The notes: generated by a model from the sequence alone, not told the origin. Positions 3,041-26,357 are shown, counted from the first letter of the stretch. The stretch: DNA of 41,794 nt from a bacterium (GCA_035488355.1 DATHLI010000131.1:1-41794); one strand, 5' to 3'. Numbers and translations are program-made.

Positions 3041-3211
3041 TCGCGACCCCTCGCAACGACATGAGAGGCCAGCGCATTTCTGCTCCGGCCTCCCTCCCCG
3101 CATCTTTCATAGTGGCAACCAGATCATACGACGGCTCCTGGGCCGGCTGCTTCCATCGTTCGGAGGATTTCCATGGATCAAACGATTTGAGGGCCTGCTA
3201 CCATCCCGCGG

Positions 3212-3847
3212 CTACCTCGGCAGGAGGCGGTCGAGGTGGGGAAAAGCCGCCTGGAGGAAGGCGGCCTCGCTTCGAAGGGTATCCTGGGACGGGCCAACGG
3301 CGGGTGCGGTGATGCGGACCAGGGCCTCGTCGTCCCTATGCTGGGTCAAGGAGGTCCAGGCCAGGAAGGTGACCGCCGACAGCTCTTTTGCGACCACCGT
3401 GCCCTTGATCTGATACCAGTACAGCACCACCTGCTTAGCCTCGCCTTTCTGGACCTCGGCGCGGTTGACGATGATCGTCCGGTCGGCAAGTTGGATCGGC
3501 ATGTTCTGGACGTACGCGATGATCCATCCCGCGCCCGGGAGGCACACAATCGGAGAATGCAGGCGGTTGACGCCGGGACGCTGCGAGCCCCAGTAACCGA
3601 CGTACAGCCACAACTCGTTGCCCGCCGGCGCGCGGTAGCGGCGCAGGAGGTAATCGTCGACCTGCAAGGTCTGCAGGATTCCCGGCTCGAGAAACTCCGT
3701 CCGGCCTTCCCATCCCTCCAGCCTCAGCGGGAACGCGTTGAGAGGCTCGCGGGTCGGGATGGTATTCTCGTGGGTGACGGCCTTGAGCGGGAAGATTGCC
3801 AGGACGATGGTGACCAGAGCGATGAGATAGGATGTTCGCGCGATCAT
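3212..3847 (-). CDS. epsI: EpsI-family protein (exosortase-associated)
   Basis: Internal start of the 3212..4591 ORF: MIARTSYLIALVTIVLAIFPLKAV... One N-terminal TM segment, then a soluble domain (LRLEGWEGRTEF..., YVGYWGSQRPG..LHSP..CLPG.GW). Its ATG overlaps the exosortase stop (ATGA at 3844-3847). Confidence 0.75.
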   Translation of the reverse strand: MIARTSYLIALVTIVLAIFPLKAVTHENTIPTREPLNAFPLRLEGWEGRTEFLEPGILQTLQVDDYLLRRYRAPAGNELWLYVGYWGSQRPGVNRLHSPIVCLPGAGWIIAYVQNMPIQLADRTIIVNRAEVQKGEAKQVVLYWYQIKGTVVAKELSAVTFLAWTSLTQHRDDEALVRITAPAVGPSQDTLRSEAAFLQAAFPHLDRLLPR

Positions 3848-4734
3848 CTTCTTGCCCCCTGTCCGGTCACACGCGAGAGGGCCAGGCCTTCGAGGGCCAG
3901 GAGGCCGAAGGCCAGGCCGAAGATCACCACGCCGGAGAAGGTATGGTAGAACCCCAGCGCCACCCGTGGGTCCACGGTCTCTACCAGCACACCCGTGAGC
4001 GTCACCCGCGCGGCATTCGCCACCAGCGCGATTGGAATCGCGGAGAGCGCCAGGACCAGCCGGGGGCCCCATTTCGTCTGGGCGAAGTACGCGTAGATCA
4101 CCGCCAGGGCCAGGAGGGAGATGAGCGATCGGATACCGCTGCACGCCTCGGCCACCTCGAGGCGCATCGAAGGCAGATCGATGATGTTCCCCTCGCGGAG
4201 CACCGGCACGTTGAGGAGGTCCAGGGTCCCCGTGGCGAGGCGCGCGGCCTGGAGTTGCAGCGGGAAGGCGATCTGGTTCAATGCCGGCGCCGGCAGCGGG
4301 ATCATGAAGAGCAGATAGGCGAGGGGAAAGGCGACCAGCCCCAGCACCTTTGGTCCGCCCAAGAAGAGGGTTAGTCCGGTGAACACCACCAGGAGGGAAA
4401 ACCGCGCGGGATACCCGAAGGTCCCGGCCTGGCTGACGATGAGAAGGATCAGGCCCACCAGGAGCACCGGGTAGCCCCACGCGGATCCCTTTACCGGGAC
4501 GTGCTGCAGGCGCTCCCGGCGCTGCCAGATCAGATAGGCGCTGACGAGGGGGATGAGGAAGCCGTGCGAGTAATTCTCGTCGGCCCTCCACTGGCTCACC
4601 AGATCGACCAGCACGGGGTAGTAGAGGTAGACGACGGCCGCTCCCAGGGCCACCATCGGAATCGCCGGGGTGAGAGGCGCGAGGGCGGTGCGCCTCTTCG
4701 AGATGAGGTCAGGGACTACTGCCGCAAGCGCCAC
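3844..4734 (-). CDS. Exosortase (EpsH/Xrt family transpeptidase)
   Basis: Polytopic membrane protein with hallmark motifs: ENYSHGFLIPLVS near the N-terminus, VAEACSGIRSL (catalytic Cys), NAARVTLTG (Arg) and FYHTFSGVVIF (His). GTG start at 4734; the internal ATG (MVALGAAV...) is an alternative. Confidence 0.9.
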   Translation of the reverse strand: MALAAVVPDLISKRRTALAPLTPAIPMVALGAAVVYLYYPVLVDLVSQWRADENYSHGFLIPLVSAYLIWQRRERLQHVPVKGSAWGYPVLLVGLILLIVSQAGTFGYPARFSLLVVFTGLTLFLGGPKVLGLVAFPLAYLLFMIPLPAPALNQIAFPLQLQAARLATGTLDLLNVPVLREGNIIDLPSMRLEVAEACSGIRSLISLLALAVIYAYFAQTKWGPRLVLALSAIPIALVANAARVTLTGVLVETVDPRVALGFYHTFSGVVIFGLAFGLLALEGLALSRVTGQGARR

Positions 4735-5834: not shown

Positions 5835-7166
5835 CTACGGCCGGCGATCGACGACATAGTCCTGCCGAATATCCTGCGTTCCGCACCCCCCATCGCAATC
5901 CAGCGACCAGGTCGAGGCGAAGATGAGCCTGAGCCCGTCCCCGCTCGGCACCGGGTGTGCCTCGCATCGATAACAGTTGGTCGTATCCGTATGGAGGTGC
6001 GCCCACCGCTCCACGGTCTTGCTGCCGTCGAGCGGGACGGCGATGACTTCCTGATTGAACCGCCGTCCATCCTGGCCCTCGTAGTAGGACACGTACGCCC
6101 AGCCGGGACGCCGGGTCGCGCGCAGCGAGACATGGTACGCGTATGCTTCGTTCGTCGGATCCGTTAGCGACATGATCGCGCCGTCCCGCAGGCGGACCAT
6201 GATCACGTGCCCGAGCAATTGTCCGTTCACGATCTGACCGGCGTTGCCGCAGTGTTCCTGACCCACCATGACGTCTTCGTTGTTGTCGAACGGGTTCTGC
6301 CCGACGTCCTGGTGGGCGACGTCGTACACGAAGCCGTCCGCGGCCGCCCCGTGGCAGATCGGACCGCTCTCCGGGTGCGGCGTCAGGGCGAGTGTCAGGG
6401 GGTTCACGTCGAAGATCCGGTTGTAATCACCGCTGTAATGGACCCAGACGTACTTCCCGCTCGCTGACATGCCCATGCCGGTCGCCGCCCACCCGTTATA
6501 CGCGTAGCTGGCGATGGGGCCAATGAGGTCGGCCTGCATGTCGACCACGAACATGTTGCCCGCCTGGTCGGCCAGCGCCACGAACCGGCCGTCGGCCGAG
6601 GCATTGCCGTTCGTCAGGCCGAGGAAGGACACCGGGATGGGCAGGGTCCAGGACCGGACCTGCCGGCACTGGACGACGTCGAACCACTCGAGCAGGATGC
6701 CGTCGGCGTTGATGCGCACAGACGGCTGGGTCGGATGCCAGCGATCGTCCCGGCGATCGTAGTTGGCGCATTGCGACGCGGCGGGCAGGTAGGAGCTGCC
6801 GTCGAGGAAGAGCAGACTTGGGGTCCCCCCCGGCTGATCCATCGCGATGAGCGTTTGATCCGCGTTCCACGCCTCGTCGGTGGAGTAGTGGTGACGGGCG
6901 TCCGCGCCCCACTGCCAGGATCCGGCGGCGGCGGGCGCGATCGGCGTTCCAGGATCGCCCGAGATCCGCGTGACGATCGTGCCGAACGGCGGGAGGGCCG
7001 CCGGTGCAAGGTACGGAGGCTTGGGCACCGGGCCGACCGGGAGCAGGGCCGAGACATCCGTCACGATGCCCGCCAGACTCATCGGCGCCCCCTGCCCCGA
7101 GAGCAGGACCACCGCCGTGACCAGGATGATCGTCGCCGCGCGCGCCCCAATGCGGTTCCCGCCCAT
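5835..7166 (-). CDS. Secreted Cys-rich protein of unknown function; last gene of the EPS operon
   Basis: 443 aa with a signal-anchor (GARAATIILVTAVVLLSGQG). W/Y/N/D-rich composition with 10 Cys (e.g. TNCYRCEAHP, LDCDGGCGTQD). Recurrent beta-strand-like segments such as ADGRFVALADQAGNMFVVD and ASGKYVWVHYSGD. GAGGAGG lies upstream of the ATG. Confidence 0.7.
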   Translation of the reverse strand: MGGNRIGARAATIILVTAVVLLSGQGAPMSLAGIVTDVSALLPVGPVPKPPYLAPAALPPFGTIVTRISGDPGTPIAPAAAGSWQWGADARHHYSTDEAWNADQTLIAMDQPGGTPSLLFLDGSSYLPAASQCANYDRRDDRWHPTQPSVRINADGILLEWFDVVQCRQVRSWTLPIPVSFLGLTNGNASADGRFVALADQAGNMFVVDMQADLIGPIASYAYNGWAATGMGMSASGKYVWVHYSGDYNRIFDVNPLTLALTPHPESGPICHGAAADGFVYDVAHQDVGQNPFDNNEDVMVGQEHCGNAGQIVNGQLLGHVIMVRLRDGAIMSLTDPTNEAYAYHVSLRATRRPGWAYVSYYEGQDGRRFNQEVIAVPLDGSKTVERWAHLHTDTTNCYRCEAHPVPSGDGLRLIFASTWSLDCDGGCGTQDIRQDYVVDRRP

Positions 7167-7187: not shown

Positions 7188-8792
7188 TCAGATGGCATCC
7201 CACACGAGCGCTTTCACACGCCGGACGACCTCCTCCAGCGGGACGCTCGCGTCGAGCGGCACGACCCGGGTCCGCGGAGAATAGCGCAAACGCCGGCTGA
7301 TCCGATCGCGCTTCCGGATCTCCGCGAGGTCCATGTCCGGCTTCCGTTGTGAGGCGACCTCCGGCGCCACATCGAGGCGGACGACCAGATCGGGCGGGTG
7401 CGCCTCGGCCCAGTCGTATGGCGCGCGTTCCCACCGCGCCAGGGCGCGCAGCAGGCGGGAGCGGCTCTCCCGCCACTCCGAGAGCAGCGGCCCGTCCATG
7501 CACCCCATCGTCTGGTTCTGGGGAAACCGGTCGCAGACCACGATCATGCCCCGCTCGTGCGCTCGCCAGGCGCGGCGCAGCCGCTGGGCTTTCTCGGCGC
7601 GGAGGATCAACGCCCACAGCGCTCGGGCGATCCGCATCCCCGCCGGGGGCGTGCCCGGCACGCCGCCGTCCCTCGCGCGCGCCGGGGCGGATCGGGCGCG
7701 CGCCTCCGCCTTCCGCCGGTGCCACCATCGACCGGCGACCTGCAGGGGCCAGCGGATCGGCGACACGGGGCCGTCTCCGCTGCCGAAATAGATGGGCAGC
7801 ACGTCGACGTGCTCCGACAGCCACGCCACGATCTCGTTGACCACGGTGGACTTCCCCGACCCATCCGGACCAACGACCGCGATCAATCGCCCTCCGGTGG
7901 CCGGAGTCAGCCGCAGCGGCACCGGCGGAAAGAGCCGCCTGAGAGGCGACGCGCGCCACACCGCGCAGGCCTCTTTGAGCCATCGGTGCCACACGGCCGC
8001 GCTCGGGCCATACCGGCGGTGGGGATGGAGGGCGGTCACCACGCTGCGGCGAAACGCCAGCAGCCCGCGCATCGACGGCCGGCCCTCCAATAGCTCCGAC
8101 ACCCGCCGCGCGGCGCCGTCGTCCAGCAACTTGCGGCCCCATTCGGCGACCCGTGGGGCGGCCGCACGGGTCTCGAGCCAGCGAAACTTCGTCAGGACGC
8201 GGCCGCGAAAGCACGGCGCCGTCCGAGGCCGGCCCAGCCGCTCGTATGTCCGCAGCTTCAACGCCGCCCGCACAAGGAACAGGATCATGTCGACGTTGGG
8301 ATCCGCCGTGTAGATGCCGTGCTCGGCGTCCAGCCGCCGGCTCGCCAGCACCGCGTCCTCCCAAGGGAGGTGATAGCCCTTGAGGTGCCCCTCGCCCGTG
8401 ATCAGGCGATAGTACACGTGGACGTGGGTGAGACGGGCGGTCTGGCGATCCAGCGCCAGAAAATGGCCGATCGCGGGATACGCAAACCAGCCGCAGGGGA
8501 CACACGGCTTGAATCCGACCTCGGCCAGGATCCGGTTCAGCAGGGGCGCCGCCGTCCCATCGACGAGCAGATCGACGTCGAGCGCGCCCTGCAACGACGC
8601 GGTCAGCGTGTCGTTGTCTTTCCAGTGACAGTAGAGGACATCTTCCTCATGCAGCCGGCCGGTCAATCTGCCGAGGACGCTCAACGTGGTGGATGGTGCA
8701 GGCCGTTCGGTCGCCCCGCCCGTCCCGGTGGTCCGCGCCGCGGCGACGCTGCCGGGCGGGGATCCACGCAGCGCTCCGCGCACCTCTCTCAT
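7188..8792 (-). CDS. Fusion protein: N-terminal uncharacterised nucleotidyltransferase-like domain plus C-terminal thymidylate-kinase-like P-loop domain
   Basis: The N-terminal half has CHWKDN...LQGALDVDLLVD, which resembles the DxD motif of Pol-beta-type 'uncharacterised nucleotidyltransferase' proteins. The C-terminal half has Walker A VVGPDGSGKST, then VVCDRFP (DRY-like) and PDLVVRLDVAPEVASQRK (a dTMP-kinase-like lid). Its ATG overlaps the upstream PIG-L stop (ATGA). Confidence 0.65.
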   Translation of the reverse strand: MREVRGALRGSPPGSVAAARTTGTGGATERPAPSTTLSVLGRLTGRLHEEDVLYCHWKDNDTLTASLQGALDVDLLVDGTAAPLLNRILAEVGFKPCVPCGWFAYPAIGHFLALDRQTARLTHVHVYYRLITGEGHLKGYHLPWEDAVLASRRLDAEHGIYTADPNVDMILFLVRAALKLRTYERLGRPRTAPCFRGRVLTKFRWLETRAAAPRVAEWGRKLLDDGAARRVSELLEGRPSMRGLLAFRRSVVTALHPHRRYGPSAAVWHRWLKEACAVWRASPLRRLFPPVPLRLTPATGGRLIAVVGPDGSGKSTVVNEIVAWLSEHVDVLPIYFGSGDGPVSPIRWPLQVAGRWWHRRKAEARARSAPARARDGGVPGTPPAGMRIARALWALILRAEKAQRLRRAWRAHERGMIVVCDRFPQNQTMGCMDGPLLSEWRESRSRLLRALARWERAPYDWAEAHPPDLVVRLDVAPEVASQRKPDMDLAEIRKRDRISRRLRYSPRTRVVPLDASVPLEEVVRRVKALVWDAI

Positions 8793-9580
8793 GATCCCGC
8801 GGGCGTGCGGGCAGGCTGGAGGGCATCGGCCGCGAGCAGATCCCTCGGCGTGGAAGGAGGCAGGAGGGCATCGGCCACGAGCAGATCCCGCACGAGGATG
8901 AACGCCTCGGCGGCCTGCATCCCCACCGCAATCCCCCGCTGCTGGGCATACACGCGCAGCGCTTCCGGCGACCGTGGGTGGGGATAGGGCTTGACCTCGC
9001 TGATGAAGGTGTTGCGATACGCCTCAAAGGCCCTGAGCTTTTCGTCGAGCGTTGTGCTGATGTCCACGTACACCGTGGGGAGAAACGCCCAGTCCGCGAA
9101 CGGCGGCCCCCACTCCGTCGACGACGCCACCTCGTAACACAGAAGCCTCCGCACCGGGTTCTCGCCAAACGGGCGCGCGGCGACCAGCGTGGCCGCAAAC
9201 GCGGCGCGGTGGTCCTGGTTCGCGTCGCCGTGATGATGCGTGTAGACGACCTGGGGGCGCAGGTCCCGGATCGCGTCGGAGATGGGCCGGATGATGTCGA
9301 GCAGGGGCACGCTGTCGAGCCGCTGGTCCGGGAGATCGACGAAGCGCACCTCGTGAACGCCCAACGCTCGGCACGCGGCGCGCGCCGCCGCCTTCTGCGG
9401 CTCGGTCACGGGGTGATGCGACGTGACGCCGTCCGTCAGGATCAGCACGGACACCCGATCTCCCCCGTGGACATGCCGGGCAATGGTCCCCCCCACCCCG
9501 AGGACTTCATCATCCGGGTGGGCGCCGATGACGAGGACCGACGTCGAGGGGCCGGCGCCCCCGCGGTGTGACTGCGTCAT
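8789..9580 (-). CDS. PIG-L/LmbE-family N-acetylglucosaminyl deacetylase
   Basis: VLVIGAHPDDEVLGVGGTIARH... and HHHGDANQDH motifs. ATGA overlaps on both sides. Confidence 0.85.
   Translation of the reverse strand: MTQSHRGGAGPSTSVLVIGAHPDDEVLGVGGTIARHVHGGDRVSVLILTDGVTSHHPVTEPQKAAARAACRALGVHEVRFVDLPDQRLDSVPLLDIIRPISDAIRDLRPQVVYTHHHGDANQDHRAAFAATLVAARPFGENPVRRLLCYEVASSTEWGPPFADWAFLPTVYVDISTTLDEKLRAFEAYRNTFISEVKPYPHPRSPEALRVYAQQRGIAVGMQAAEAFILVRDLLVADALLPPSTPRDLLAADALQPARTPAGS
8818..8889. repeat. 45-bp in-frame tandem duplication at the 3' end of the PIG-L gene
   Basis: ggagggcatcggccGcgagcagatccc (8818-8844) is repeated as ggagggcatcggccAcgagcagatccc (8863-8889). This encodes RDLLVADALLPPSTP / RDLLAADALQPARTP. 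Confidence 0.8.
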
Positions 9581-11571
9581 CGTGTGGTCACGACAGGGTC
9601 CCCGCCTTTCTCACGCGCGGGCGCCGCCCGGGGAGGCGGTGGGTCTCGGTGCAGCGCGTCGCCGTTTCCCCCCAACCACACCGGCATGGGCTCGGAGCTC
9701 GTCACCATCTGATGCAGCACGCGCTTGACGCCGGTCAGGTCCATGGCACGGGACAGCCTGTCCAGTTCCTGAATGGCCAGCCGCAAGATGACCTCGTCCA
9801 CCCGCCCGTTGGTGCGGACCGCGAACATCCCCGGCAGGGTTGTCCCGCCGAGGGGCTCGTCCGAGGTCTCGAGCGCTTCATGGAGTTGCTCGCCGGGCCG
9901 GATCCCCGTGAAGACAATCGGAATGTCCTTGTCGGGCTCCAGTCCGGAGAGCCGGATCAACTCCTGCGCCAGGTCGAGGATCTTGATGGGCCGGCCCATG
10001 TCGAGCATGAAAATGTCGTGGGATTCCTGCGAGGCGCTGGCCTGAAGGACGAGCGCCACCGCCTCCCGGGTGCTCATGAAGTACCGGGTCATCTCGGGGT
10101 GCGTGATGGTCACAGGTCCCCCGCGGCGAATTTGCTCCTGCAAGACCGGGACGACGCTCCCACGGCTCCCGATCACATTGCCGAAGCGAACGGCGAGAAA
10201 GCGCGTGCCCCCCCGCGCGTTCAGGGCTTTCACGATCCACTCCGCCAGACGCTTGGTCGCCCCCATGACGCTCGTGGCGTTCACGGCCTTGTCGGTGGAA
10301 ATCAGCACGAACGTTTGGGTCCCGCAGGCCAGCGCGGCCTCGGCCACGGCCAGCGTGCCGAGGATGTTTGTCCGGACGGCCTCGTCCGGGTGACGTTCCA
10401 TCAGCGGGACATGTTTGTAGGCGGCCGCGTGGTAGACCACGTCCGGTCGCCAGGCGCTGAACACCTTCTGGATCTTGTCCGAGTCACGGACGTCTGCGAT
10501 CACGGTCTGCACCCGCTGCTCCAGCGGAGGATGAATGATCTCCTCCGCAAGGTGGAACAGCGCGGTTTCGTTCGTGTCGAGCAGGAGCACCCGCGCGGCG
10601 TCCGACCGGGACAATTGACGGGCGAGCTCGCTGCCGATCGACCCGGCGGCCCCCGTGACGAGCACCGTTTGTCCTCTCAGAAAGGCCGCGACACGGTTGG
10701 CGTCGATGGGCGCCGGCTTGCGCCCCAACAGATCCTCCAGATTCACGTCCCGAATGTCATGCACCGTCACGTGGCCCGTGAGGAGCTCGTGAACGCTGGG
10801 GAGCACCCGGACCCGCGTAATGCCCGCCTCGCGGGCGAAGCGCATGATATCACGGACGTGCCCGGAGCCGGCGGAGACGAAGGTAATGACCACTTCGTCG
10901 ACCTCCAGCTTCCGGACCGCGTCCGGAATCGCTTCCTTGCCTCCCATCACTTTCAGCCCGTGGACGAACGTGCCCCACTTCGACGCGTCATCGTCGATAA
11001 ACCCCACCGGATGGTACGCCGCGTGCCCGTTACTCACCATCGACCGGGCGATCATCCCGCCCGCCTCTCCCGCGCCCACCAGCAGCACTCGGGAGCCGCG
11101 TCCGGTGCTCGACCTGGCGCGCGGGATCTCATTCGACAACCGCCGCCCGAGCCGGGAGACCGCGATCAACGTGGTCCCCAACAGATAATCCAGGATCAGG
11201 ACCCCCCGCGGGAAGGTGCCGTAGGCATGGATCCCCTGCAGGAGAAACAGCCCCCCCGCCAGGGTCAGCGTCGCCGCGGTCGACGCCTTCCACGCCCCCA
11301 CAATCTCCTTGAGGCCCACCAGGGCCCAGGTGACGCGGTACAACCGAAAGACGGCGTTCCAGGCGAGCTTCACGGGAAGAAATAGGATCAGCACGACCGG
11401 CATGGCGGCGATGAATTGAGGCGGAATGGCCCCATCGAAGCGAATGAGCAGCGCCAGCGCGTAGCTGAGGACCCAGAGCAGCACATCGCTGATGCCAAAA
11501 TATACATGCTGAGCCACCCAAGCGCCCGACACCCGCCTGGACCGTCCGATCGGCAGCCTGCGGCGAATCAT
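9577..11571 (-). CDS. Membrane-anchored CapD/PglF/WbpM-type NDP-sugar 4,6-dehydratase (polysaccharide biosynthesis protein)
   Basis: N-terminal TM segments, then VLLVGAGEAGG, VLVTGAAGSIGSELARQL and ISTDKAVNATSVMGATKRLAE. Confidence 0.9.
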   Translation of the reverse strand: MIRRRLPIGRSRRVSGAWVAQHVYFGISDVLLWVLSYALALLIRFDGAIPPQFIAAMPVVLILFLPVKLAWNAVFRLYRVTWALVGLKEIVGAWKASTAATLTLAGGLFLLQGIHAYGTFPRGVLILDYLLGTTLIAVSRLGRRLSNEIPRARSSTGRGSRVLLVGAGEAGGMIARSMVSNGHAAYHPVGFIDDDASKWGTFVHGLKVMGGKEAIPDAVRKLEVDEVVITFVSAGSGHVRDIMRFAREAGITRVRVLPSVHELLTGHVTVHDIRDVNLEDLLGRKPAPIDANRVAAFLRGQTVLVTGAAGSIGSELARQLSRSDAARVLLLDTNETALFHLAEEIIHPPLEQRVQTVIADVRDSDKIQKVFSAWRPDVVYHAAAYKHVPLMERHPDEAVRTNILGTLAVAEAALACGTQTFVLISTDKAVNATSVMGATKRLAEWIVKALNARGGTRFLAVRFGNVIGSRGSVVPVLQEQIRRGGPVTITHPEMTRYFMSTREAVALVLQASASQESHDIFMLDMGRPIKILDLAQELIRLSGLEPDKDIPIVFTGIRPGEQLHEALETSDEPLGGTTLPGMFAVRTNGRVDEVILRLAIQELDRLSRAMDLTGVKRVLHQMVTSSEPMPVWLGGNGDALHRDPPPPRAAPAREKGGDPVVTTR

Positions 11572-12953
11572 GGCGTGGACACCGCGGCGGCGTCTCGTCC
11601 GTCCAGGGCGGGGACCGAGACCGGGGCGGCCACCGGCACGGCCGGCGCGTCGCCGCGTCCCAGGCTGTGGTACTCGAAGCCGTGCGCCCGCATCTGCGCG
11701 GGCTCGAAGAGGTTCCGGCCGTCGATGACGAGCGGCGCGCGCATCACCGGACGCAGGCGCTCGAGATCCACGGACCGGAATTCGTCCCAGTCCGTAAGGA
11801 TCACGAGGGCGTGCGCCTCCCGCGCGGCCTGATACGAGGACTCCGCGTAGGCGAGGTGGTCGTCCGGAGGCCAGAGGCCCGCCAGCTTCTGCGCCGCCCG
11901 GGGATCGTAGATGCGGAGGGTCACGCCGGCTTCCCGCAGCCGCGCGATCACCCCGAGGCTGGGCGCTCCGCGGATGTCGTCGGTGTCGGGCTTGAACGCC
12001 ACCCCGAGCACCCCCACCGTCTTCCCGCGCAGGCCCCCCATCGCCTCGTCCAGCTTCTGGATGAGGCGATCCACCCGGGAGGCGTTGATCCGTTCGACCT
12101 CACGCAGCAGGGCGAAGTCGAGGCCCGCGTCCGCGGCGCCCCAGATGAACGCCTTCAGGTCTTTCGTAAAGCACGACCCTCCGTACCCCAGCCCCGCCTG
12201 CAGAAAGTGGGGCCCGATCCGCGGGTCGAGGCCGATGCCGCGCGCGACGTCGGCGACGTCCGCGCCGGCCTGGTCGCAGAAATCGGCCACCATGTTGACG
12301 AACGAGATCTTCGTCGCGAGGAACGCGTTGGCCGCGTGCTTGATGAGCTCGGCGGTCCTGATGCTGGTGAGGAGGATGGGGCACTCGAAATCGCGCGCGT
12401 ACAGCTCGCGGAGGAGCGCCCGGGCCCGGTCTGAGTCGGCGCCGATGATGATCCGGTCGGGGTGCAGGAAGTCGCGCACCGCCGAGCCTTCGCGCAAGAA
12501 CTCGGGATTGCTCGCGACCTCGTACTCGGGCATGCTCCCGACCGGCCGGCGGAGGGCCCGGTCGATGCCGGCGCCCGTATGGACGGGGACCGTGCTCTTT
12601 TCCACGATGAGCTTGAAGCCGTCCGGCCGGCAGGCGATGCTGGCGACGGCCTCGTCGATCTGGGAGAGATCGGTCCGTCCGTCGGGAAGGGCCGGGGTGC
12701 CGACACACAGGAAGATGATGTCCGAGCGGTCCAGCATCTCGGCGGTCGACGTGGTGAACTTCAGGCGGCCGGACTGCAGGGTGGACTGCAGGAGCTCCCA
12801 GAGTCCCGGCTCGTACACGATCGGTTCGCCGCGGGCCAGGCGGGCGACGCGCTCCGCATCCTTGTCCATGCCCACCACGGTGTGGCCGAGCGCGGCAAAT
12901 CCCACCGCGGTGACGAGTCCGACGTGACCGGTCCCCATAATGCCGAGCCTCAT
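11568..12953 (-). CDS. ugd: UDP-glucose 6-dehydrogenase family nucleotide-sugar dehydrogenase
   Basis: The track ORF is trimmed to ATG 12953 (MRLGIMGTGHVGLVTAVGFA...). EKSTVPV, NPEFLREG and GYGGSCFTKD catalytic-Cys motifs are present. A GGGGGG SD-like run lies upstream. Confidence 0.85.
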   Translation of the reverse strand: MRLGIMGTGHVGLVTAVGFAALGHTVVGMDKDAERVARLARGEPIVYEPGLWELLQSTLQSGRLKFTTSTAEMLDRSDIIFLCVGTPALPDGRTDLSQIDEAVASIACRPDGFKLIVEKSTVPVHTGAGIDRALRRPVGSMPEYEVASNPEFLREGSAVRDFLHPDRIIIGADSDRARALLRELYARDFECPILLTSIRTAELIKHAANAFLATKISFVNMVADFCDQAGADVADVARGIGLDPRIGPHFLQAGLGYGGSCFTKDLKAFIWGAADAGLDFALLREVERINASRVDRLIQKLDEAMGGLRGKTVGVLGVAFKPDTDDIRGAPSLGVIARLREAGVTLRIYDPRAAQKLAGLWPPDDHLAYAESSYQAAREAHALVILTDWDEFRSVDLERLRPVMRAPLVIDGRNLFEPAQMRAHGFEYHSLGRGDAPAVPVAAPVSVPALDGRDAAAVSTP

Positions 12954-15720: not shown

Positions 15721-16986
15721 CTATCGACGGTATCGCTCGAGCACATCGGCGACGGCGTCGACCACATCGTCCACGTCGTCATCGGACATCCTGGGAAAGA
15801 GCGGCAGCGACACGAGGCGCTGATACTCGCGGTAGGCAACCGGAAAGTCCTCCCGCCGGTACCCGTACTTGTCCCGGTAGTACGGGTGCAGGTGCACCGG
15901 GATGAAATGGACGCTGGCGCCGATCTTCCGGGCCCGCAGTTCCTCGATGAAGCGGTGGCGGATCGCCGCCGCGGAGGTGTCCGCGCCGGGGAATCGCAGC
16001 CGCTCGGTGCGGAGGCGGAGCGCGTAGAGGTGCCAGGCGTGCTCGACCTCCGGCCGCTCGGGGGGCGTGTCGACCTCGGGGAACGTGGAGAAGGCCTGCG
16101 TATAGCGCCGGACGATGGCGCGGCGGCGCCCCTGAAAGGCCGGCACCTTCCGCAGTTGGTGCAGGCCGATCGATGCCTGGACGTCGGTCATGTTGTACTT
16201 GAATCCTGGATGGAGGACCTCGTAGTACCAGGACCCCGTCGCGTCGTATCGCTTCCACGCGTCCCGGCTCATGCCGTGCAGGCTCCAGGGACGCGCGTCT
16301 TCCACAAGCGAGGGGGCGCCGGTCAGCATCCCCCCCTCCGCCGTCGTGAGGTTCTTCGTGGCGTAGAACGAAAAGCAGGTCAGGGTGCGGGGGACGGCGG
16401 CATCCGCCGCCCAGGAGCCGACGGGGCGGGTTCGGTAGGCCGCCCCCAGCGCGTGCGCGCCGTCCTCGATGACGTCGAGGTGGAAGTCGCGCGCCAGGCC
16501 CAGGATCGCATCCATCTCGTAGGGATGGCCGTGCAGGTGGATGGGCAGAATCGCCTTGATCGGGCCATCCTGGCCCTGCGTGCGGGCATCGCGCCCCGCC
16601 CGCGCCAGCGCGGCCTCGACCTGATGGGGCGCGATGTTCAGGGTATCCGGTTCCACATCGACGAGCAGGGGGCGCGCGCCCACGTGCTCGATGACGTTCA
16701 CGCTCGCGCAGAACGTCATCGGCGACGTGATGACCCGATGGCCGGGGCCGACCCCCAGGGTCACCAGCGCCAGGTGGAGGGCGGCGGTGCACGAATTCAC
16801 GGCCAGGGCCGCCGGCGCGCCCACGAAGCGGGAGAAGTCTTCCTCGAATTGCTTCACCTTCGGGCCGGTGGTGATCCAGGCCGAGCCGAGCGTCGCGGCG
16901 ACCTCGGCGATCTCTTCCTCACCGACGGCGTGGGCGCAGAACGGCAGCTCGGTGCTCCGAACCCTCCGTTGCAGGACTTCGCGCAT
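15721..16986 (-). CDS. DegT/DnrJ/EryC1/StrS-family PLP-dependent sugar aminotransferase
   Basis: The track ORF is trimmed to ATG 16986 (MREVLQRRV...). It contains ITTGPKVKQFEEDF, NSCTAALHLAL, IEDGAHALGA and SFYATKNLTTAEGGM (PLP Lys). Confidence 0.9.
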   Translation of the reverse strand: MREVLQRRVRSTELPFCAHAVGEEEIAEVAATLGSAWITTGPKVKQFEEDFSRFVGAPAALAVNSCTAALHLALVTLGVGPGHRVITSPMTFCASVNVIEHVGARPLLVDVEPDTLNIAPHQVEAALARAGRDARTQGQDGPIKAILPIHLHGHPYEMDAILGLARDFHLDVIEDGAHALGAAYRTRPVGSWAADAAVPRTLTCFSFYATKNLTTAEGGMLTGAPSLVEDARPWSLHGMSRDAWKRYDATGSWYYEVLHPGFKYNMTDVQASIGLHQLRKVPAFQGRRRAIVRRYTQAFSTFPEVDTPPERPEVEHAWHLYALRLRTERLRFPGADTSAAAIRHRFIEELRARKIGASVHFIPVHLHPYYRDKYGYRREDFPVAYREYQRLVSLPLFPRMSDDDVDDVVDAVADVLERYRR

Positions 16987-16988
16987 CC

Positions 16989-18269
16989 CTATCCCCCCTC
17001 TCCACGGCCGGCGGCCTCGTAGACCGCCGCCAGCATCCCCAGGGCGATCCACAGCGATCGATAATGCTCGCCGTTCGAGACGAGGCTCTGGCCCAGAACG
17101 GCCAGGATGATGGCCAGGGCCGGCTTGGCAACCGCGGCGGCGGGCCCTCGGCCGAGCACCACCGCATCCCGAATCGCGAGACCGAACAACCAGGCAAATG
17201 CGGCGAGCCCGACCACCCCAAGCTCTGCCGCGATGGAGAGATAGGTATCGTGCACGGGCTGGCGCCTCCAGCCGTGGACCGTCTCGGCGTACCCGGGGAA
17301 CTGGCCGTCGCCGATCCCGAGCACCGGCGAGGTGGAGAACGCCTCGATCGCCATGGCCCGCAAATACTCCCGGTCCTCGATGTTCGGTCCCTGGCCCGAC
17401 ACGATCGTGGCCACGCGCCCCGCGATGAATGGGTTGGCGTGCCAATAGGCGACGGCGCCCCCGCCGGTCAGCCCGAGCGCCACAAGCGCCGGGATGAGGC
17501 GCCTCCACGACCCGGACGCCGGACGGCGCCACCTGAGGAGCACCGGAAACGCGAGCGCCGCGCCCAGGATGGCCCCGCGCGACCCGGTGGCGAGGATCCC
17601 CACCAGGAGGAGCGGCGTGGTGAGCCAGAGCGGGACCCGGAGCCCGGGCGGGTTCCCATCACGCTCGTCCAGCCGGGCGAGCATGACGGACAGAAACACG
17701 TTGAACGCGAGGTAGTCGGCGTACAGGTTCTCGTTGGGAAACGGACCCCCCGGCCGGACGCCCCAGGCCATCAGGCTCTCCCGGATCGTGATGATCGAAA
17801 AGAGGCTCGCGGCCAGGATCGACACGGGAGCAAACACCCTGAGGCCCGCGCTCGGGGCGCGGCGGAGCAGGACGTAGACGGCGAGCATCCATGCGGCGCT
17901 GCCGCCGACCCTCACGATCTCCAGGACGCCGGCGAGCGGAGTGAAATACGCGGGCGCCTTCTCCGGCGCCGCCAGAGGCACCAGCAGGGACGCGAGTCCG
18001 GCGAGCATGAGCCCCACCGTCGGCGGGAGGTATCGGGGAAAGGCGATCCGGTCCCAGAGGCAGCTCACGAAGAAGCCGAGGAAGACGATCGCCACGACGA
18101 TATCCCCGAGGCTCGCATCGATGACCGTCCCGGCGGTCCCCGTGTCGTAGTGGAACGGGTAGGCGATCGCGAGCGCGACCAGCAAGGTCTCCCGCAGTCC
18201 CCACGGCCGCCGCGCCGCCGGCGCCACCGGGAGCTCGCGCGCGTGAAGCACCGCCTGGGCGGCGTTCAT
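16989..18269 (-). CDS. O-antigen ligase/polymerase-like (Wzy_C domain) membrane protein
   Basis: About 10-12 TM segments. The LATGSRGAILGAALAF motif is characteristic of the WaaL/PglL/Wzy_C family. ATGA overlap with the upstream gene. Confidence 0.75.
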   Translation of the reverse strand: MNAAQAVLHARELPVAPAARRPWGLRETLLVALAIAYPFHYDTGTAGTVIDASLGDIVVAIVFLGFFVSCLWDRIAFPRYLPPTVGLMLAGLASLLVPLAAPEKAPAYFTPLAGVLEIVRVGGSAAWMLAVYVLLRRAPSAGLRVFAPVSILAASLFSIITIRESLMAWGVRPGGPFPNENLYADYLAFNVFLSVMLARLDERDGNPPGLRVPLWLTTPLLLVGILATGSRGAILGAALAFPVLLRWRRPASGSWRRLIPALVALGLTGGGAVAYWHANPFIAGRVATIVSGQGPNIEDREYLRAMAIEAFSTSPVLGIGDGQFPGYAETVHGWRRQPVHDTYLSIAAELGVVGLAAFAWLFGLAIRDAVVLGRGPAAAVAKPALAIILAVLGQSLVSNGEHYRSLWIALGMLAAVYEAAGRGEGG

Positions 18270-19015
18270 GATCCCCGCACCCGCGCCTGGACGGGACGGC
18301 GGCGGGCCCAGAGGTGCTCGATGCGCGCGGCGAGCGCGTCCGCATGCGCCTCGACGCCGTCCCCGTTGTTGTCCACCGTCGTCACGTCGACGCCCTGGGG
18401 TTCGGTCGACAGCCCCTCGACGAACCGTCGGAGCTCCTGCCAGATCTGGACGGCTCTGACGAAGGCGTGAGGGTCGTCTGCCGCTACGCGCTCGAGACGG
18501 GACCCCCCAAATGGACGGCCGGCCAGACGCGCCGCGGCGGTCGCCGGGCGGACATCGACGATCACGACCAGGTCCGGGCGCGGAAACAGCGGATACAGAT
18601 CGTGGAGCAGCGCCGCGAGGGCGCCGTTCCTGCCGGAGTACCCGATAGACCAGAGGGCCTGAAAGACGCCTTCGTCGAGCAGGACCACGTGTTCCCCCGG
18701 GCCGTTGTCCTCCATGACGCTGGAGACGAAGAGCCAGTTGTGCATGGCTTTCGCAGCGTCAACCAACGAGCGCTGTCCGGATGCCAGAACCGCCAGCCCC
18801 GACCGGTAGGCGCTGTGCGGCCTGGACAGGGTCCCCCTCAGGCCCCGCGCCATCTTCCGCGCGCGGACCCGCCAGGAGGTGTCGGGATACAACGACCCGA
18901 CGTTTTTCACGGCAAGGCCGCGCCGGGCCAGGCGGCCGGCGACCGCTCGGGCCAGCGTGGTCTTCCCCGCGCCGGGGAGGCCGACGAATTCGACGAGCAG
19001 ATGCCCCCGGGTCAT
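18266..19015 (-). CDS. Stand-alone P-loop NTPase, thymidylate-kinase-like, function unknown
   Basis: Internal start of the 18266..20236 ORF: MTRGHLLVEFVGLPGAGKTTLARAVAGRL (Walker A at the extreme N-terminus), VVLLDEGVF (Walker B-like), PDLVVIVDVRPATAAARL (lid). ATGA overlaps at both ends (19012-19015 and 18266-18269). Confidence 0.65.
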   Translation of the reverse strand: MTRGHLLVEFVGLPGAGKTTLARAVAGRLARRGLAVKNVGSLYPDTSWRVRARKMARGLRGTLSRPHSAYRSGLAVLASGQRSLVDAAKAMHNWLFVSSVMEDNGPGEHVVLLDEGVFQALWSIGYSGRNGALAALLHDLYPLFPRPDLVVIVDVRPATAAARLAGRPFGGSRLERVAADDPHAFVRAVQIWQELRRFVEGLSTEPQGVDVTTVDNNGDGVEAHADALAARIEHLWARRRPVQARVRGS

Positions 19016-20517
19016 GCCGGCTCCCGCAGGATCCACCGCAGGCAGCCGGTCAGGCCGGCGTATCGGGCGGCGTGCGGGCGCAACAACCGGAGCAACCAGG
19101 TCCCGTCGCGGCCGAGGAACAGGCGGGGCGCGTGGTGGAGCAGCAGCGGGAGGGTCGCCAGGGCCGTCGCGGTCGCCACCGACAGCGTCAGCAGCGGCGG
19201 GGCCTGCCACTGTCTGAAGAGGGCGGACACCACCTCGAGTTGCAGCGCGACGACGAGCGCCAGCGCCGCTCCGGGGAGGTGCGCGCGCCAAAACTGCGCC
19301 CACGACAGATTCGCCATGGTGAGGGTCAGGTGGGCCATGAGGAGAAAATTGACCACGATGGCGCCGCTCACGCCGACCGCGACACCGGCAAGCCCCCACC
19401 GGGTCCCCGCCCATGCGCCCGCGACCACGAGCAGCGCATAGATGGCCTGCCGGGACGCCCGCCGGTAGACGGCGCCGGCGGCGCGGACCGTCGCGTCGCT
19501 GATCTTGTAGCTCGTCCGGAACAGCATCGCGGCGGCGAAGATCTGGAGGGGGGCCGTGATCCCGGTCCACTTGGGACCCAGCAGCACCCGGACAATTTCC
19601 GGAGCGAGCACCAGGAGGCCGGCGCTCACGGGAAGCGACACCAGGGCGATCAGGGCAACGGCGCGGCCGTAGGCCAGGCCCAGCTGCTTGGGGTCGTCCT
19701 GAAACCGGGCCATGCCCGGAAACAGGACTCTGTCGAGCACGTCGCCGATGTACATCGCCGGCATGACCATCAGCTGAATGGCCCGCCCGTACAGGCCCAA
19801 CGCTTCGGCGCCGAGCGAGCGCACCACGACAGCGCTGTCCCCCTGCCCGGCCGCGTAATTGGCGAGTTTGGCGAGCATCATGCCCCCGCCGAACCGCACC
19901 AGTTCCTGGAGGGCGCGCCGCTCCAGCAGGGGGATCATCGGATGCGGTTGGATGACGAGCAGGAACACGGCCCGCGCCACGATCTGCGCGCAATACGCGG
20001 CGACGAACGCCCAGAACCCAAAGCCGAAGAGCGCCAGCCCGATCCCGATCAGCCCGTATCCCAGCGCGTAGGTGACCGCGTCCAGGATGGCGAGCAGGCG
20101 GAAGCGCATCTTGCGCTGCAGGAGAAATTCCGCGACCGTAAAGGCGGCCTGCAGGGGGAAGCACAGCGACATCGTCCGGAGCACGGCCGCCAGCGGCTCC
20201 AATCGAAAGAACCGCGCCAGGAGGTCCGCGCTCCACCAGGTCAGCCCGAGCAAGGCCACGCCGCCCAGGAGCGACAGGGTAAAGGCCACGCGGATGTGGG
20301 TCATGCGAAGGTCCGGGATCTGCACCATCGCCGGCGCGACGGCGAACTGGGAGATGGTGACGGCCACGCCCACCACGACCAGCGCGGCGTTGACGATGCC
20401 AAAATCCCGCACGGTGAGCAGTCGGGCGAGGACGATCAGCACGAGCAGTTGTCCCATGCCGCGCGCTCCGGTTCCCATGAGGGTCCAGAGCAACCCGGAC
20501 AGCATCGTGTGGGCCAT
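19012..20517 (-). CDS. Wzx-like polysaccharide flippase (MOP superfamily)
   Basis: About 12-14 TM helices: MAHTMLSGLLWTLMGTGARGMGQLLVLIVLARLLTVRDFG... The start is uncertain: ATG 20517, or GTG 20622 which would overlap the upstream gene by 11 nt. Confidence 0.75.
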   Translation of the reverse strand: MAHTMLSGLLWTLMGTGARGMGQLLVLIVLARLLTVRDFGIVNAALVVVGVAVTISQFAVAPAMVQIPDLRMTHIRVAFTLSLLGGVALLGLTWWSADLLARFFRLEPLAAVLRTMSLCFPLQAAFTVAEFLLQRKMRFRLLAILDAVTYALGYGLIGIGLALFGFGFWAFVAAYCAQIVARAVFLLVIQPHPMIPLLERRALQELVRFGGGMMLAKLANYAAGQGDSAVVVRSLGAEALGLYGRAIQLMVMPAMYIGDVLDRVLFPGMARFQDDPKQLGLAYGRAVALIALVSLPVSAGLLVLAPEIVRVLLGPKWTGITAPLQIFAAAMLFRTSYKISDATVRAAGAVYRRASRQAIYALLVVAGAWAGTRWGLAGVAVGVSGAIVVNFLLMAHLTLTMANLSWAQFWRAHLPGAALALVVALQLEVVSALFRQWQAPPLLTLSVATATALATLPLLLHHAPRLFLGRDGTWLLRLLRPHAARYAGLTGCLRWILREPA

Positions 20518-20611
20518 GCCTCCGGCCCCGCGCGGTTCGTCCGACGCCGCCCCCGGGTCCGCCGCGCCCGGGCGGACAGACCCCGGTGCGGGCCGGAGGG
20601 TCGCGCTCAGC

Positions 20612-22718: not shown

Positions 22719-23927
22719 TCACTTGAAGATGTAGGCGACCCCGGCCAGCACACTGGCGATCATCTGGAATCCCCCCATCCCCGTCATCGGGAGCACCAGG
22801 ACGTCCCCGGGCTGGACGGGGATGTCTCGGCTCGGATCGCGCGTGATCGCTCCCAGATCGGCGGTGATGAGCGTGTGTCCGTTCGGAAGAGCGGTCACCC
22901 GCGCGGGACCGGCGCTGACCTCCTGCGGGGTGTTGTCGCTGCGCCGCACGACAAAGGCGGACGCGGCGGTGCCCGGCCCCCGTTGCTCCGGGCCCCCGGC
23001 CATCGCGATGGCCTGGAGCAGCGTGACGTGGCCCTTCACCGGAAAGACCCCGGGATTCCTGACGTCCCCGATGACGTAGATCTTGTTGTCGACCTCCTCA
23101 GGGATGAAGAGCACATCCCCCGGGCTCAAGGGGATGTTGCGGTCCATCTCCTGACGCAGCAGCAGCCCATCTAGAAGGAGCGGTTCGGCCTTTCCGGATG
23201 CCCGCGCCAGCGAGGCCTGCATGACCGATGCGCGTTCCGTCAGCCCTCCCGCCAGCATCAGGGCGTCCAGCACGCGCATCTCGCCCTTCAGACGATACCG
23301 CCCCGGGCGGGCGACCTCGCCTTGGACCGTGACAAAGCCGGTCAGGTCCTCAGGGACCACCAGCGTTTCTCCGCCGGCGAGCGGCGCGTTCACCTCCGGC
23401 GCGCCCGCCATGGCCTGGGTCAGGTCGACGCGGAGGGCCGGCAGCCCAGGACGCAGGAGTTGCGCATCGCCGAGCGCTGCCGCTTCGGTGGGCCCGCCTC
23501 CGGCCGCGACGAGATCGAGGAGGCGCGTTCCCAGCGGGAGATCATAGGAGCCGGGGTGCGCGATCTGTCCGAGAACCGCGACACGCAGCTTTCGGTACTC
23601 TTTGATGGTCACCGCCACGTGCGGGTCGATAATGAACTCCGCGTAGGCCTTGGCGATGAGCGCGGTCAGGCGCTCGACCGACACTCCGGCGATACGGATC
23701 ATGCCGATGAGCGGAAGCGCGATCTCGCCGTCGGGGCCGACCACTCCCTGCCGGGTGAGATCGGGATAGCCCCACACAGAGATCTCGAGGAGATCTCCAG
23801 GGCCGAGCAGGTACCCGGCCGGAGGCTGGCCCATTGCGACGCCGTTCAGCGAACCGATCAGCAGACTGGCGATTAAGAACCCGGTCGCGGCATACCGATG
23901 GCTTCGTCTCAGCCCGTCGCGCATCAT
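22719..23927 (-). CDS. Wza/EpsE-like polysaccharide export protein (Poly_export plus several SLBB domains)
   Basis: Signal sequence, then YLLGPGDLLEISVWGYPDLTRQGVVGPDGEIALPLIGMIRIAGVS. Repeated SLBB-like units follow (VTVQGEVARPGRY, IYVIGDVRNPGVF). GGGAGGG lies upstream of the ATG. Confidence 0.85.
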   Translation of the reverse strand: MMRDGLRRSHRYAATGFLIASLLIGSLNGVAMGQPPAGYLLGPGDLLEISVWGYPDLTRQGVVGPDGEIALPLIGMIRIAGVSVERLTALIAKAYAEFIIDPHVAVTIKEYRKLRVAVLGQIAHPGSYDLPLGTRLLDLVAAGGGPTEAAALGDAQLLRPGLPALRVDLTQAMAGAPEVNAPLAGGETLVVPEDLTGFVTVQGEVARPGRYRLKGEMRVLDALMLAGGLTERASVMQASLARASGKAEPLLLDGLLLRQEMDRNIPLSPGDVLFIPEEVDNKIYVIGDVRNPGVFPVKGHVTLLQAIAMAGGPEQRGPGTAASAFVVRRSDNTPQEVSAGPARVTALPNGHTLITADLGAITRDPSRDIPVQPGDVLVLPMTGMGGFQMIASVLAGVAYIFK

Positions 23928-26057: not shown

Positions 26058-26357
26058 GAGGCCCCGGTCCTGCCGTATAGCGATCTGAACCTTCGCATCG
26101 CTCCACTATTATTATCCGGGCACGGCTCTATACTGCCCTAGTATCAAAAGAAGGATTTCGGAAGTATCTTTTGCGCGAGCCACGGGGCCCTCTCCCTCGC
26201 CCTCGTTCGAAGGATTCCCATTTTTCCTCCCTTTTGCGGAGCACCCTCTTAGGGTTAACCCCCTATACTTGGCTTATGTGCGCTGGCTGGCCGGGAGGCC
26301 GACTGGTTCTGAGTCTACGTGCGCGGGCAGGTCCCGGCGCCACCGAAGGTGTCTTTG

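Follow-up and report, generated by a model that had tools for sequence, protein, structure and literature searches.

We describe here a gene that lies in a 41,794-nt stretch of bacterial DNA (GCA_035488355.1 DATHLI010000131.1:1-41794), the whole of which is called the window below, and that encodes a 534-amino-acid (aa) protein joining a nucleotidyltransferase-like (NTase-like) N-terminal half to a thymidylate-kinase-like C-terminal half. A Pfam scan of the window proteins places this fusion gene in a long minus-strand operon, which runs from Wza through a GNVR/Wzc-like protein, the Wzx flippase, a Wzy_C protein, a DegT aminotransferase, a GT4::Bac_transf protein, a UDP-sugar dehydrogenase, a PglF-like dehydratase and a PIG-L family deacetylase to the fusion gene itself and, beyond it, a gene for a 443-aa protein. 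Because the window also holds an exosortase and two PEP-CTERM proteins, it is an exosortase-type exopolysaccharide (EPS) locus; the location within an EPS operon recorded in the first-pass annotation of this DNA thus holds, the operon being of the Wzx/Wzy type.

Judged from sequence comparison and structure models, the fusion protein is a genuine two-domain cytoplasmic enzyme with the predicted catalytic sites intact in both halves. The family to which it belongs is an accessory dedicated to Wzx/Wzy-dependent polysaccharide synthesis, genetically tied to Wzx and to a second small P-loop kinase, and probably performs an ATP-dependent step in surface polysaccharide synthesis. Neither domain family has a characterized member in the context of a polysaccharide locus, and the whole-protein family is without a Pfam or NCBIfam model.

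The fusion gene and its distribution

The single 534-aa open reading frame (ORF) given in the first-pass annotation was confirmed: it begins with ATG, its codon-position pattern is coding-like and typical of the neighbouring genes, and its GC content at third codon positions (GC3) is uniform, at 0.86. All of the motifs quoted there are present in the protein, namely HWKDN...LQGALDVDLLVD (aa 56-78), GPDGSGKST (aa 308-316), the Arg/Ala-rich stretch RRKAEARARSAPARARDGG (aa 359-377), CDRFP (aa 420-424) and PDLVVRLDV (aa 467-475).

A homologue search brought up hundreds of proteins that are collinear with it and about 500-530 aa long, and the two-domain architecture is collinear in 42/42 aligned relatives. 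When 1.84 billion representative proteins, clustered at 50% identity, were searched with a profile, 1,709 clusters were obtained at E ≤ 1e-30, the top 150 of which span both domains without exception (150/150). At least 550 species encode a relative, as judged from one genome for each species. The bacterial relatives are spread over Chloroflexota, Acidobacteriota, Gemmatimonadota (where there are many), Bacteroidota, Bacillota, Planctomycetota, the cyanobacterial genera Nostoc, Calothrix and Tolypothrix, and Vibrio, Photobacterium and Microvirga, while archaeal relatives occur in Methanosarcinales, Halobacteriales and Nanoarchaeota. Such recurrence of one collinear architecture is far beyond chance, and a sequencing frameshift joining two separate genes, which the first-pass annotation had named as a way in which its proposal might fall, is thereby excluded. 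The same 534-aa protein was moreover found identical on several independent contigs, GC3 shows no break along the gene, and the AlphaFold2 model is confident across the domain junction.

The probability of an assembly or sequencing artefact is therefore negligible, even though the closest relative, from a soil metagenome-assembled genome (MAG) labelled 'Bacillati bacterium ANGP1' (VBAO01000416.1), could be cited in favour of one. This copy (3020-4550), which shares about 88% nucleotide identity with the window and is syntenic with it over ~6.3 kb, from the dehydratase gene to past the 443-aa protein gene, is broken into two reading frames and has no match to aa 253-310. Since the fusion is universal elsewhere, the split copy is an anomaly: a pseudogene, or else an error in the assembly of the MAG.

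The N-terminal nucleotidyltransferase-fold domain

The full-length AlphaFold2 model has a predicted local distance difference test score (pLDDT) of 86.9 and a predicted template modelling score (pTM) of 0.85, with low confidence at residues 1-33 and the loop at ~371-380 only; the high pTM implies a fixed arrangement of the two domains. When aa 34-290 were modelled alone, pLDDT was 92.6, and the top 29 matches of this model in a Foldseek search of the PDB were all NTases of the Pol-beta superfamily. The best were ANT(2'')-Ia (5kqj, 4wqk, 5cfs, 4xje), LnuA (4fo1) and a Helicobacter pylori NTase (4ok0), with CCA-adding enzymes, OAS3 and Cid1 at lower ranks; the ANT(2'')-Ia and LnuA matches have a probability of 1.0, an E value of 1.5e-3, template modelling (TM) scores of 0.48-0.55 and identities of 13-15%. 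Foldseek with the full-length model retrieved thymidylate kinases only, and the NTase match emerged after the N-terminal domain had been modelled separately.

No Pfam or NCBIfam match to this half was obtained in a single-sequence scan of the window protein, and PF14907 (NTP_transf_5) gave none at E ≤ 1. Among the 42 relatives, 9 match PF14907 at E ≤ 0.01, all sub-threshold and the best at 1e-5; the best individual relatives score 21.5-28.4 bits (1e-5 to 1e-6), below the gathering score of 31.2 bits. Invariant across the 42-sequence alignment are Y54, C55, K58, N60, G69, D72, D74, D115, H123, H125, K138, W144, E145 and R175. D72/D74 and D115 fall on model strands 73-77 and 108-115, so that D72-x-D74 together with D115 would match the expected place of the NTase metal-binding triad. 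At the level of the modelled fold, then, the N-terminal half is a Pol-beta-type nucleotidyltransferase, as the first-pass annotation had proposed from sequence motifs.

The C-terminal kinase domain and its relationship to YghR, YghS and YghT

The assignment of the C-terminal half to the P-loop kinases also stands and can be made narrower. Foldseek of the full model matched thymidylate kinases (TMPKs) with an E value of 5e-8 and target TM scores of 0.6-0.7, and a family profile matched PDB thymidylate kinases at 9e-8 over a region spanning the P-loop, the DR(Y) motif and the lid; 32/42 relatives match PF02223, below threshold. The residues invariant in this half (n=42) comprise G308, D310, G311, G313, K314, Y335, G337-S338-G339, G341 and S344, followed by E400, D421, R422, Q425, D433-G434-P435, E455, Y459 and R483, the lid arginine. 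The domain differs from TMPK by a large helical insertion with a hypervariable loop and by the additional invariant motifs YFGSGDG and DGP. The Arg/Ala-rich stretch belongs to that loop, which among the 42 relatives differs in length by as many as ~90 residues (alignment columns ~370-460); the stretch noted in the first-pass annotation is thus real, but it does not interrupt the kinase fold, as was supposed there.

In a tblastn search of plasmid records, aa 303-532 matched Escherichia coli yghT and yghS at 30% identity, and a hidden Markov model (HMM) of the C-terminal domain matched YghT at 3.3e-41, a YghR-like protein at 2.8e-39 and YghS at 5.8e-38 (HMM positions 14-242 of 246; 229/246). The motifs GxDGSGKST, DRYPQ.Q..G..DGP and PDLVIKL..EVA..RKPD are common to the domain and YghR/S/T. 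By these sequence comparisons, the C-terminal half is homologous over its full length to the uncharacterized E. coli ATP-binding proteins YghR/S/T and is not a dTMP kinase. The E. coli proteins are stand-alone, of about 230-250 aa and without an NTase domain, whereas here the homologous region is one half of a 534-aa fusion; correspondingly, an HMM of the N-terminal domain found no match among five proteins of the YghQ/R/S/T region. Like the fusion family, YghR/S/T adjoin a flippase-type membrane protein, which is YghQ-like and by Pfam belongs to the Polysacc_synt (MOP/Wzx) families.

That the protein is an ordinary dTMP kinase supplying dTDP for dTDP-sugars is scarcely credible, although its fold, P-loop, DR and lid motifs match TMPK and although public databases label members of the family as such: JGI names many of them 'thymidylate kinase' and PGAP names YghS/YghT 'dTMP kinase', others being 'hypothetical protein'. 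The PF02223 and TIGR00041 scores lie under the curated cut-offs, at 6e-5 and 23.2 bits against a cut-off of 27 for PF02223, with aa 308-328 alone aligned, and at 23.4 against 83.25 for TIGR00041. The base-binding segment appears to be replaced: the FAASRREH of Staphylococcus aureus TMPK stands opposite LALEKRKKL in the profile alignment, where the aromatic residue and the Arg of helix 3 by which TMPK binds dTMP or thymine are not conserved, and the segment after strand 2 reads as an invariant YFGSGDGPSS in place of the Arg-Glu-Pro segment, the dTMP-binding motif of TMPK. A 534-aa fusion with an NTase domain would likewise be unexpected for such an enzyme, and E. coli has YghR/S/T besides its essential tmk. 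The 'thymidylate kinase' and 'dTMP kinase' labels are therefore wrong and should be replaced.

One E. coli record (NZ_MG591698.1, 13142-31786) carries yghQ-like and yghR/S/T genes preceded by extra genes, which encode lptF/lptG-like permeases, a YtfJ-family protein, an acyl carrier protein, a class I/II aminotransferase and an epimerase/dehydratase. The record is labelled plasmid, yet bears chromosomal-type genes (pitB, gss, hyb). This region looks like a fuller uncharacterized glycolipid or polysaccharide locus.

Genomic neighbourhood and natural fusions of the family

The neighbourhood was surveyed at 84 loci, dereplicated to 65. Five loci with precomputed annotation all place the family gene in Wza/Wzc/Wzx/Wzy loci, and 31/32 loci with at least 8 kb on both sides hold a homologue of Wzx, Wzy, Wza, Wzc or an initiating (phosphoglycosyl) transferase. 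By Pfam scan, the upstream neighbour is a Polysacc_synt/Polysacc_synt_3 flippase at 26/63 loci and the downstream neighbour a small P-loop protein (AAA_33, AAA_18, Thymidylate_kin or AAA_17) at about 12-20/60. With cleaned HMMs, Wzx was found immediately upstream on the same strand at 24/57 loci with enough flank, and a small kinase of ~245 aa immediately downstream at 30/60. The full trio Wzx-fusion-partner is present at 12 loci, and the order partner-Wzx-fusion at others; further out, the usual genes of polysaccharide assembly are found (GT4, Bac_transf, Poly_export, Wzy_C, Wzz/GNVR, epimerases). Wzx and the second small P-loop kinase, neither of which figured in the first-pass annotation, are thus the conserved companions of the family.

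That annotation had instead drawn attention to the PIG-L gene and to exosortase. The ATGA overlap that couples the fusion gene to the PIG-L gene is real (its ATG overlaps the TGA of the upstream gene; read directly, ...GGA TCA TGA GAG AGG...), but a conserved association was not borne out, a PIG-L homologue being present at 4/65 dereplicated loci; the coupling is local to the lineage of the window. An exosortase homologue within ±10 kb was found at 0/65, so the suggested decoration of PEP-CTERM proteins lacks support, and the fusion protein itself matched no PEP-CTERM-specific NCBIfam model. Conserved PIG-L or exosortase coupling was rejected on these counts, although XrtA-associated markers were seen at no fewer than two related loci, namely Chelatococcus pTAD1, with fusion, 255-aa AAA protein and flippase in this order, and a metagenomic locus, L004. 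At L004, the fusion gene is flanked by a 371-aa NTP_transf_5-like gene and a small AAA_18 kinase (8892..10007 (+) and 11565..12296 (+)); stand-alone and fused NTase modules therefore coexist in one locus. An anti-phage defence system was also considered and rejected, as the PADLOC matches cover a P-loop of 25-30 residues only, at an E value of about 5e-4.

The family further occurs in natural fusions to other domains. A complete flippase stands N-terminal to the family in Wzx::family proteins of about 1,030 aa, which form three distinct clusters; one of them, RefSeq WP_066508813.1, is encoded by Rufibacter sp. DG15C, whose genome is finished. GT4 glycosyltransferase and Sulfotransfer_3 domains are likewise found at the N-terminus of family members, and so is an S-adenosylmethionine (SAM)-dependent methyltransferase, in a cluster of 43 members. 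The identifiable fusion partners all act on, or move, the lipid-linked repeat unit, and the fusions to a flippase and to tailoring enzymes point to action on lipid-linked glycan over free precursor. Nine Gemmatimonadota members share an N-terminal extension of about 150-500 aa (with assumed start codons) and 40-50% identity among themselves. This extension has no Pfam match and no similarity to the sulfotransferase of locus L003, and may be another fused domain; a conserved extension of this kind, some 300 aa long, is common in Gemmatimonadota.

The partner kinase in the window

The window has a partner gene of its own, which a tblastn search with the ~245-aa neighbours from 17 related loci located at 18305..19015 (-), with matches down to 4e-41. 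Two ORFs had obscured the gene, an over-extended one of 656 aa (18266..20236) that contains it and a spurious one with high GC3 on the other strand (18314..19441 +). The partner gene is translationally coupled at both ends, through a 4-nt overlap with the stop of wzx and another with the start of the Wzy-like gene. The window therefore holds the conserved trio of fusion, partner kinase and Wzx, with the fusion gene 9.5 kb further along the same operon.

The partner protein has a canonical Walker A motif and invariant lid arginines, and gives sub-threshold Pfam matches to PF02223 (6e-6), AAA_33 and AAA_18. A profile of the partner family matched, among PDB entries, APS kinase as the best non-RecA hit (APS, adenosine 5'-phosphosulfate), adenylate kinases and the lid region of TMPK. 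A close paralogy with the kinase domain of the fusion was rejected, since hhalign aligned the P-loop only; the two are therefore distinct P-loop kinase families. Also rejected was a bacterial tyrosine kinase (BY-kinase) or an EcpK-like pseudokinase, the Walker A motif being canonical and the matches being to APS kinase, adenylate kinase and TMPK rather than to MinD-like BY-kinases.

Other features of the window

The features of the fusion gene and of the window are collected in Table 1.

Table 1. Positions of the fusion gene, its domains and predicted sites, and other genes of the window
Feature	Position	Strand	Description
Fusion gene	7188..8792	(-)	534 aa, ATG start, stop codon 7188-7190; NTase-like::YghR/S/T-type kinase
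N-terminal tail, aa 1-33	8694..8792	(-)	Disordered, pLDDT about 30; unaligned and not conserved among relatives
N-terminal domain, aa 34-290	7923..8693	(-)	Predicted Pol-beta-type NTase core aa ~50-160, helical subdomain aa ~165-290; resembles NTP_transf_5
Putative metal-binding DxD, D72-V-D74	8571..8579	(-)	Third carboxylate D115 at 8448-8450
C-terminal domain, aa 291-534	7191..7922	(-)	Thymidylate-kinase-fold P-loop kinase, YghR/YghS/YghT family
Walker A/P-loop GPDGSGKST, aa 308-316	7845..7871	(-)	G308, D310, G311, G313, K314 invariant
D421-R422-F423, counterpart of TMPK 'DRY'	7524..7532	(-)	D421, R422 invariant; aligned to DRY of S. aureus TMPK
Arg/Ala-rich stretch and hypervariable loop, aa ~359-383	7644..7718	(-)	Between two long kinase-domain helices; pLDDT about 55
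443-aa protein gene	5835..7166	(-)	Downstream in same operon; starts 21 nt past fusion gene; GAGGAGG ribosome-binding site
PIG-L family deacetylase	8789..9580	(-)	Pfam 3.4e-29; translationally coupled upstream of fusion gene via ATGA overlap
Partner gene, second P-loop kinase	18266..19015	(-)	249 aa, MTRGHLLVEFVGLPGAGKTT...
Wzx-type flippase (Polysacc_synt_3)	19012..20622	(-)	Pfam 2.4e-65
Wza	22719..23927	(-)	
Exosortase	3844..4734		In window
Two PEP-CTERM proteins	30079..30762 and 30949..31647	(+)	

The 443-aa protein encoded downstream has a hydrophobic, signal-like N-terminal segment and no match in Pfam, NCBIfam or PADLOC. Homologues of it were seen at 6/65 related loci, at one of which (L005) the match falls within a large Metallophos/CBM96 protein.

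The two PEP-CTERM proteins are tandem paralogues of ~230 aa each, with an N-terminal signal-like segment and a classical sorting tail (AAVPEPSSALLLG...RR.SRR), and are located in a lower-GC part of the window (about 0.60). The DegT aminotransferase ORF (15721..17532, -) overlaps the Wzy-like gene (16989..18269, -) by ~540 nt and is over-extended at its 5' end; as its Pfam match starts at aa 204, the true start is probably near 16920. On the plus strand, a gene for a second PIG-L deacetylase (26319..27059) overlaps one for a phosphoglycosyl transferase of the Glycos_transf_4 (WecA/MraY) type (27038..28144). The PIG-L family is thus represented twice in the locus, and initiating transferases of two kinds are present. 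The 687-aa Wzc-like protein (20612..22675, -) matches only the GNVR domain at E ≤ 1e-4, with no recognizable BY-kinase domain, and may be of the phosphorylation-independent PCP-2 type, as discussed for EpsV/EcpK (PMC12004946).

Proposed function and alternatives

We favour, tentatively, an ATP/NTP-dependent cytoplasmic tailoring of the lipid-linked repeat unit near Wzx, in which phosphorylation is followed by esterification of the phosphate. At the cytoplasmic face of the membrane, beside Wzx, the enzyme would tailor the undecaprenyl-diphosphate-linked repeat unit, or a moiety common to such units, just before flipping. The kinase domain, possibly with the partner kinase, would place a phosphate from ATP onto the substrate, and the NTase-fold domain would use an NTP or NDP-activated donor to esterify the new phosphate or a sugar hydroxyl, giving a phosphodiester-linked decoration. 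For the window, this would give the enzyme a place in EPS synthesis at the exosortase/PEP-CTERM locus.

The proposed steps have parallels. ANT(2'')-Ia and LnuA are small Pol-beta NTases that nucleotidylate the hydroxyls of sugars or sugar-like substrates, LicD and fukutin-type enzymes of the NTase fold transfer phospho-alcohols to glycans, and WbdD follows a phosphate-then-cap logic on O-antigen. By analogy, the closest experimental precedent, with the same two-step logic, is the pair PsmK/PsmN of lasso peptide biosynthesis: PsmN adds a hexose to the phosphate installed by PsmK, a PsmN DxD mutant is inactive, and Phyre2 models of PsmN match the ANT(2'')-Ia entries 5cfs and 4xje (PMC6993621). 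In one family of phosphonate gene clusters, the phosphoenolpyruvate (PEP) mutase gene is flanked by genes for a thymidylate kinase and a PF14907 protein, and the pairing of TMPK with PF14907 therefore recurs outside polysaccharide loci (PMC8942020).

Several observations weigh against this proposal. The fold match of the NTase domain is weak (E about 1e-3, TM about 0.5), and the canonical hG[GS] of NTases is replaced by a conserved Y-C-H-W-K-[S/D]-N, with G69 before the DxD. The window protein scores below every Pfam and NCBIfam cut-off; the domain scan recommended in the first-pass annotation, like a PDB sequence search, matched nothing but the P-loop region when applied to this protein alone, and profiles and structure models were what yielded both folds. 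The 9.5 kb between the fusion gene and wzx in the window shows that the two need not be physically coupled. The putative acceptor-side motifs YFGSGDGPSS, DRYPQNQ..GFNDGPLL and WE..PY are conserved from E. coli to archaea; as the glycans differ, this conservation suggests a common small substrate instead of a variable repeat unit, and a sequence pattern of this kind argues for candidates such as a nucleotide, the diphosphate of the lipid carrier or the sugar added first. A literature search found no biochemical or genetic study of any family member or of YghR/S/T, and no functional study of PF14907 and thymidylate kinase-like proteins in polysaccharide loci; that the protein is not a characterized enzyme, as the first-pass annotation had it, agrees with the failure to find a characterized orthologue.

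The conservation of the acceptor-side motifs keeps two alternatives alive. In one of them, which takes up the idea of the first-pass annotation, the kinase would phosphorylate a free sugar or alcohol and the NTase would turn the product into an NDP-donor for a separate transferase, after the logic of HldE, Fkp and LicA/LicC. Such donor activation has points in its favour: a kinase paired with an NTase is a known route to activated donors, both predicted active sites appear intact and a common small substrate fits motifs conserved across phyla; the TMPK and PF14907 genes are also paired in the phosphonate cluster (PMC8942020), where nucleotide activation is plausible. We nevertheless consider it unlikely: Pfam and NCBIfam reveal no homology to known sugar or alcohol kinase or pyrophosphorylase families, the extra partner kinase is left unexplained, and fusion to a flippase would be unexpected for a soluble enzyme of donor activation, yet Wzx::family fusions exist, while the GT4, methyltransferase and sulfotransferase fusions better fit co-action on a glycan. 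Enzymes of the TMPK fold, besides, usually phosphorylate a phosphate monoester or a nucleoside and not a free sugar. In the other alternative, the protein would be a flippase-associated regulatory or scaffolding NTPase that, by binding or hydrolysing nucleotide, gates, licenses or organizes Wzx and the assembly complex without covalent change to the glycan. EcpK is a precedent for a non-catalytic P-loop scaffold in Wzx/Wzy pathways (PMC12004946). The tight synteny and direct fusion with Wzx, the retention of the acceptor-side motifs whatever the glycan type and the three paralogues beside a flippase-like gene in E. coli would all suit such a role, which is rendered rather improbable by the fold, that of a small-molecule kinase and not of a switch or motor NTPase, and by the invariance of the DR motif, the lid arginine and the NTase carboxylate triad, as expected for catalysis. 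Flippases of the MOP family are not known to need ATP, and the fusions to tailoring enzymes would be harder to explain.

A third possibility is suggested by the members fused to Sulfotransfer_3. The NTase would adenylylate sulfate and the kinase would phosphorylate the resulting APS, making the protein an analogue of 3'-phosphoadenosine 5'-phosphosulfate (PAPS) synthase that feeds an EPS sulfotransferase. An NTase with a P-loop kinase does mirror ATP sulfurylase with APS kinase, and APS kinase is the best non-RecA PDB match of the partner kinase. As a general account this is highly improbable, because no sulfotransferase was found in the window by Pfam, sulfotransferases lie outside the 25 most frequent neighbour families, the kinase domain is TMPK-like/YghT-like rather than APS-kinase-like and a Pol-beta NTase acting on sulfate would be unprecedented; a PAPS-like role is possible for the sulfotransferase-fused subgroup, not for the family in general.

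Returning to the tailoring of the lipid-linked repeat unit, a broader form of the proposal may be put forward, although we regard it as speculative. The fusion, the small partner kinase and Wzx would form a widespread and hitherto unrecognized three-part module that adds a covalent ATP/NTP-dependent step to Wzx/Wzy assembly, for example by marking the lipid-linked repeat unit (or the carrier) with a phosphodiester or nucleotidyl group so as to license or accompany flipping, and yghQRST would be the E. coli remnant of this module.

Significance

Wzx/Wzy-dependent pathways make most capsules, O-antigens and exopolysaccharides, and their core steps are thought to be known. A phylum-spanning family with intact predicted sites, synteny and fusion with the flippase, and a second kinase indicate an unrecognized ATP-dependent reaction at the flipping stage. 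If the three-part module were true, the textbook Wzx route, in which assembly leads straight to ATP-independent flipping, would miss a step in thousands of loci. The finding is not special to the window, and the function is one that we infer. The family also gives the orphan E. coli genes yghQ/R/S/T their first functional context, which makes the question testable in a model organism, and a phosphate-linked decoration, should this be the product, would affect surface glycans in their charge, their antigenicity and their recognition by phages or hosts.

Comparison with known systems

Thymidylate kinases (PF02223/TIGR00041) share with the C-terminal domain the fold, the P-loop, DR[YF] and the lid arginine, and NTP_transf_5 (PF14907) shares with the N-terminal domain the DxD and a third Asp, the relatives matching it sub-threshold only. 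In structure, the N-terminal domain comes closest to ANT(2'')-Ia and LnuA; the fusion protein differs from them in having no resistance context and in carrying an extra helical subdomain of ~125 aa. PsmN, which judged from its description would belong to PF14907, has the same structural neighbours as the N-terminal domain (ANT(2'')-Ia, 5cfs and 4xje) and works on the product of a kinase, but its substrate is a peptide and it is paired with a kinase of the HPr-kinase type, not of the TMPK fold.

Among the enzymes of glycan biosynthesis, WbdD, the chain terminator of E. coli O9a with a kinase and a methyltransferase domain, caps a glycan phosphate by means of its second domain, and the present family includes a methyltransferase fusion; WbdD differs in its protein-kinase-like kinase, its ABC-transporter pathway and its lack of homology to the family. 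HldE, Fkp and LicA+LicC bring a kinase and an NTase together in one polypeptide or operon of polysaccharide synthesis, and the logic is alike, but the folds are unrelated: the fusion protein had no PfkB, GHMP, choline-kinase, cytidylyltransferase or NTP_transferase match in Pfam or NCBIfam at E ≤ 1. HldE, Fkp and LicA/LicC are, moreover, soluble precursor enzymes that are not coupled to flippases. Kinase-plus-NTase bifunctionality is known in glycan biosynthesis, and what is new here is that it comes with different folds, coupling to a flippase and a second kinase.

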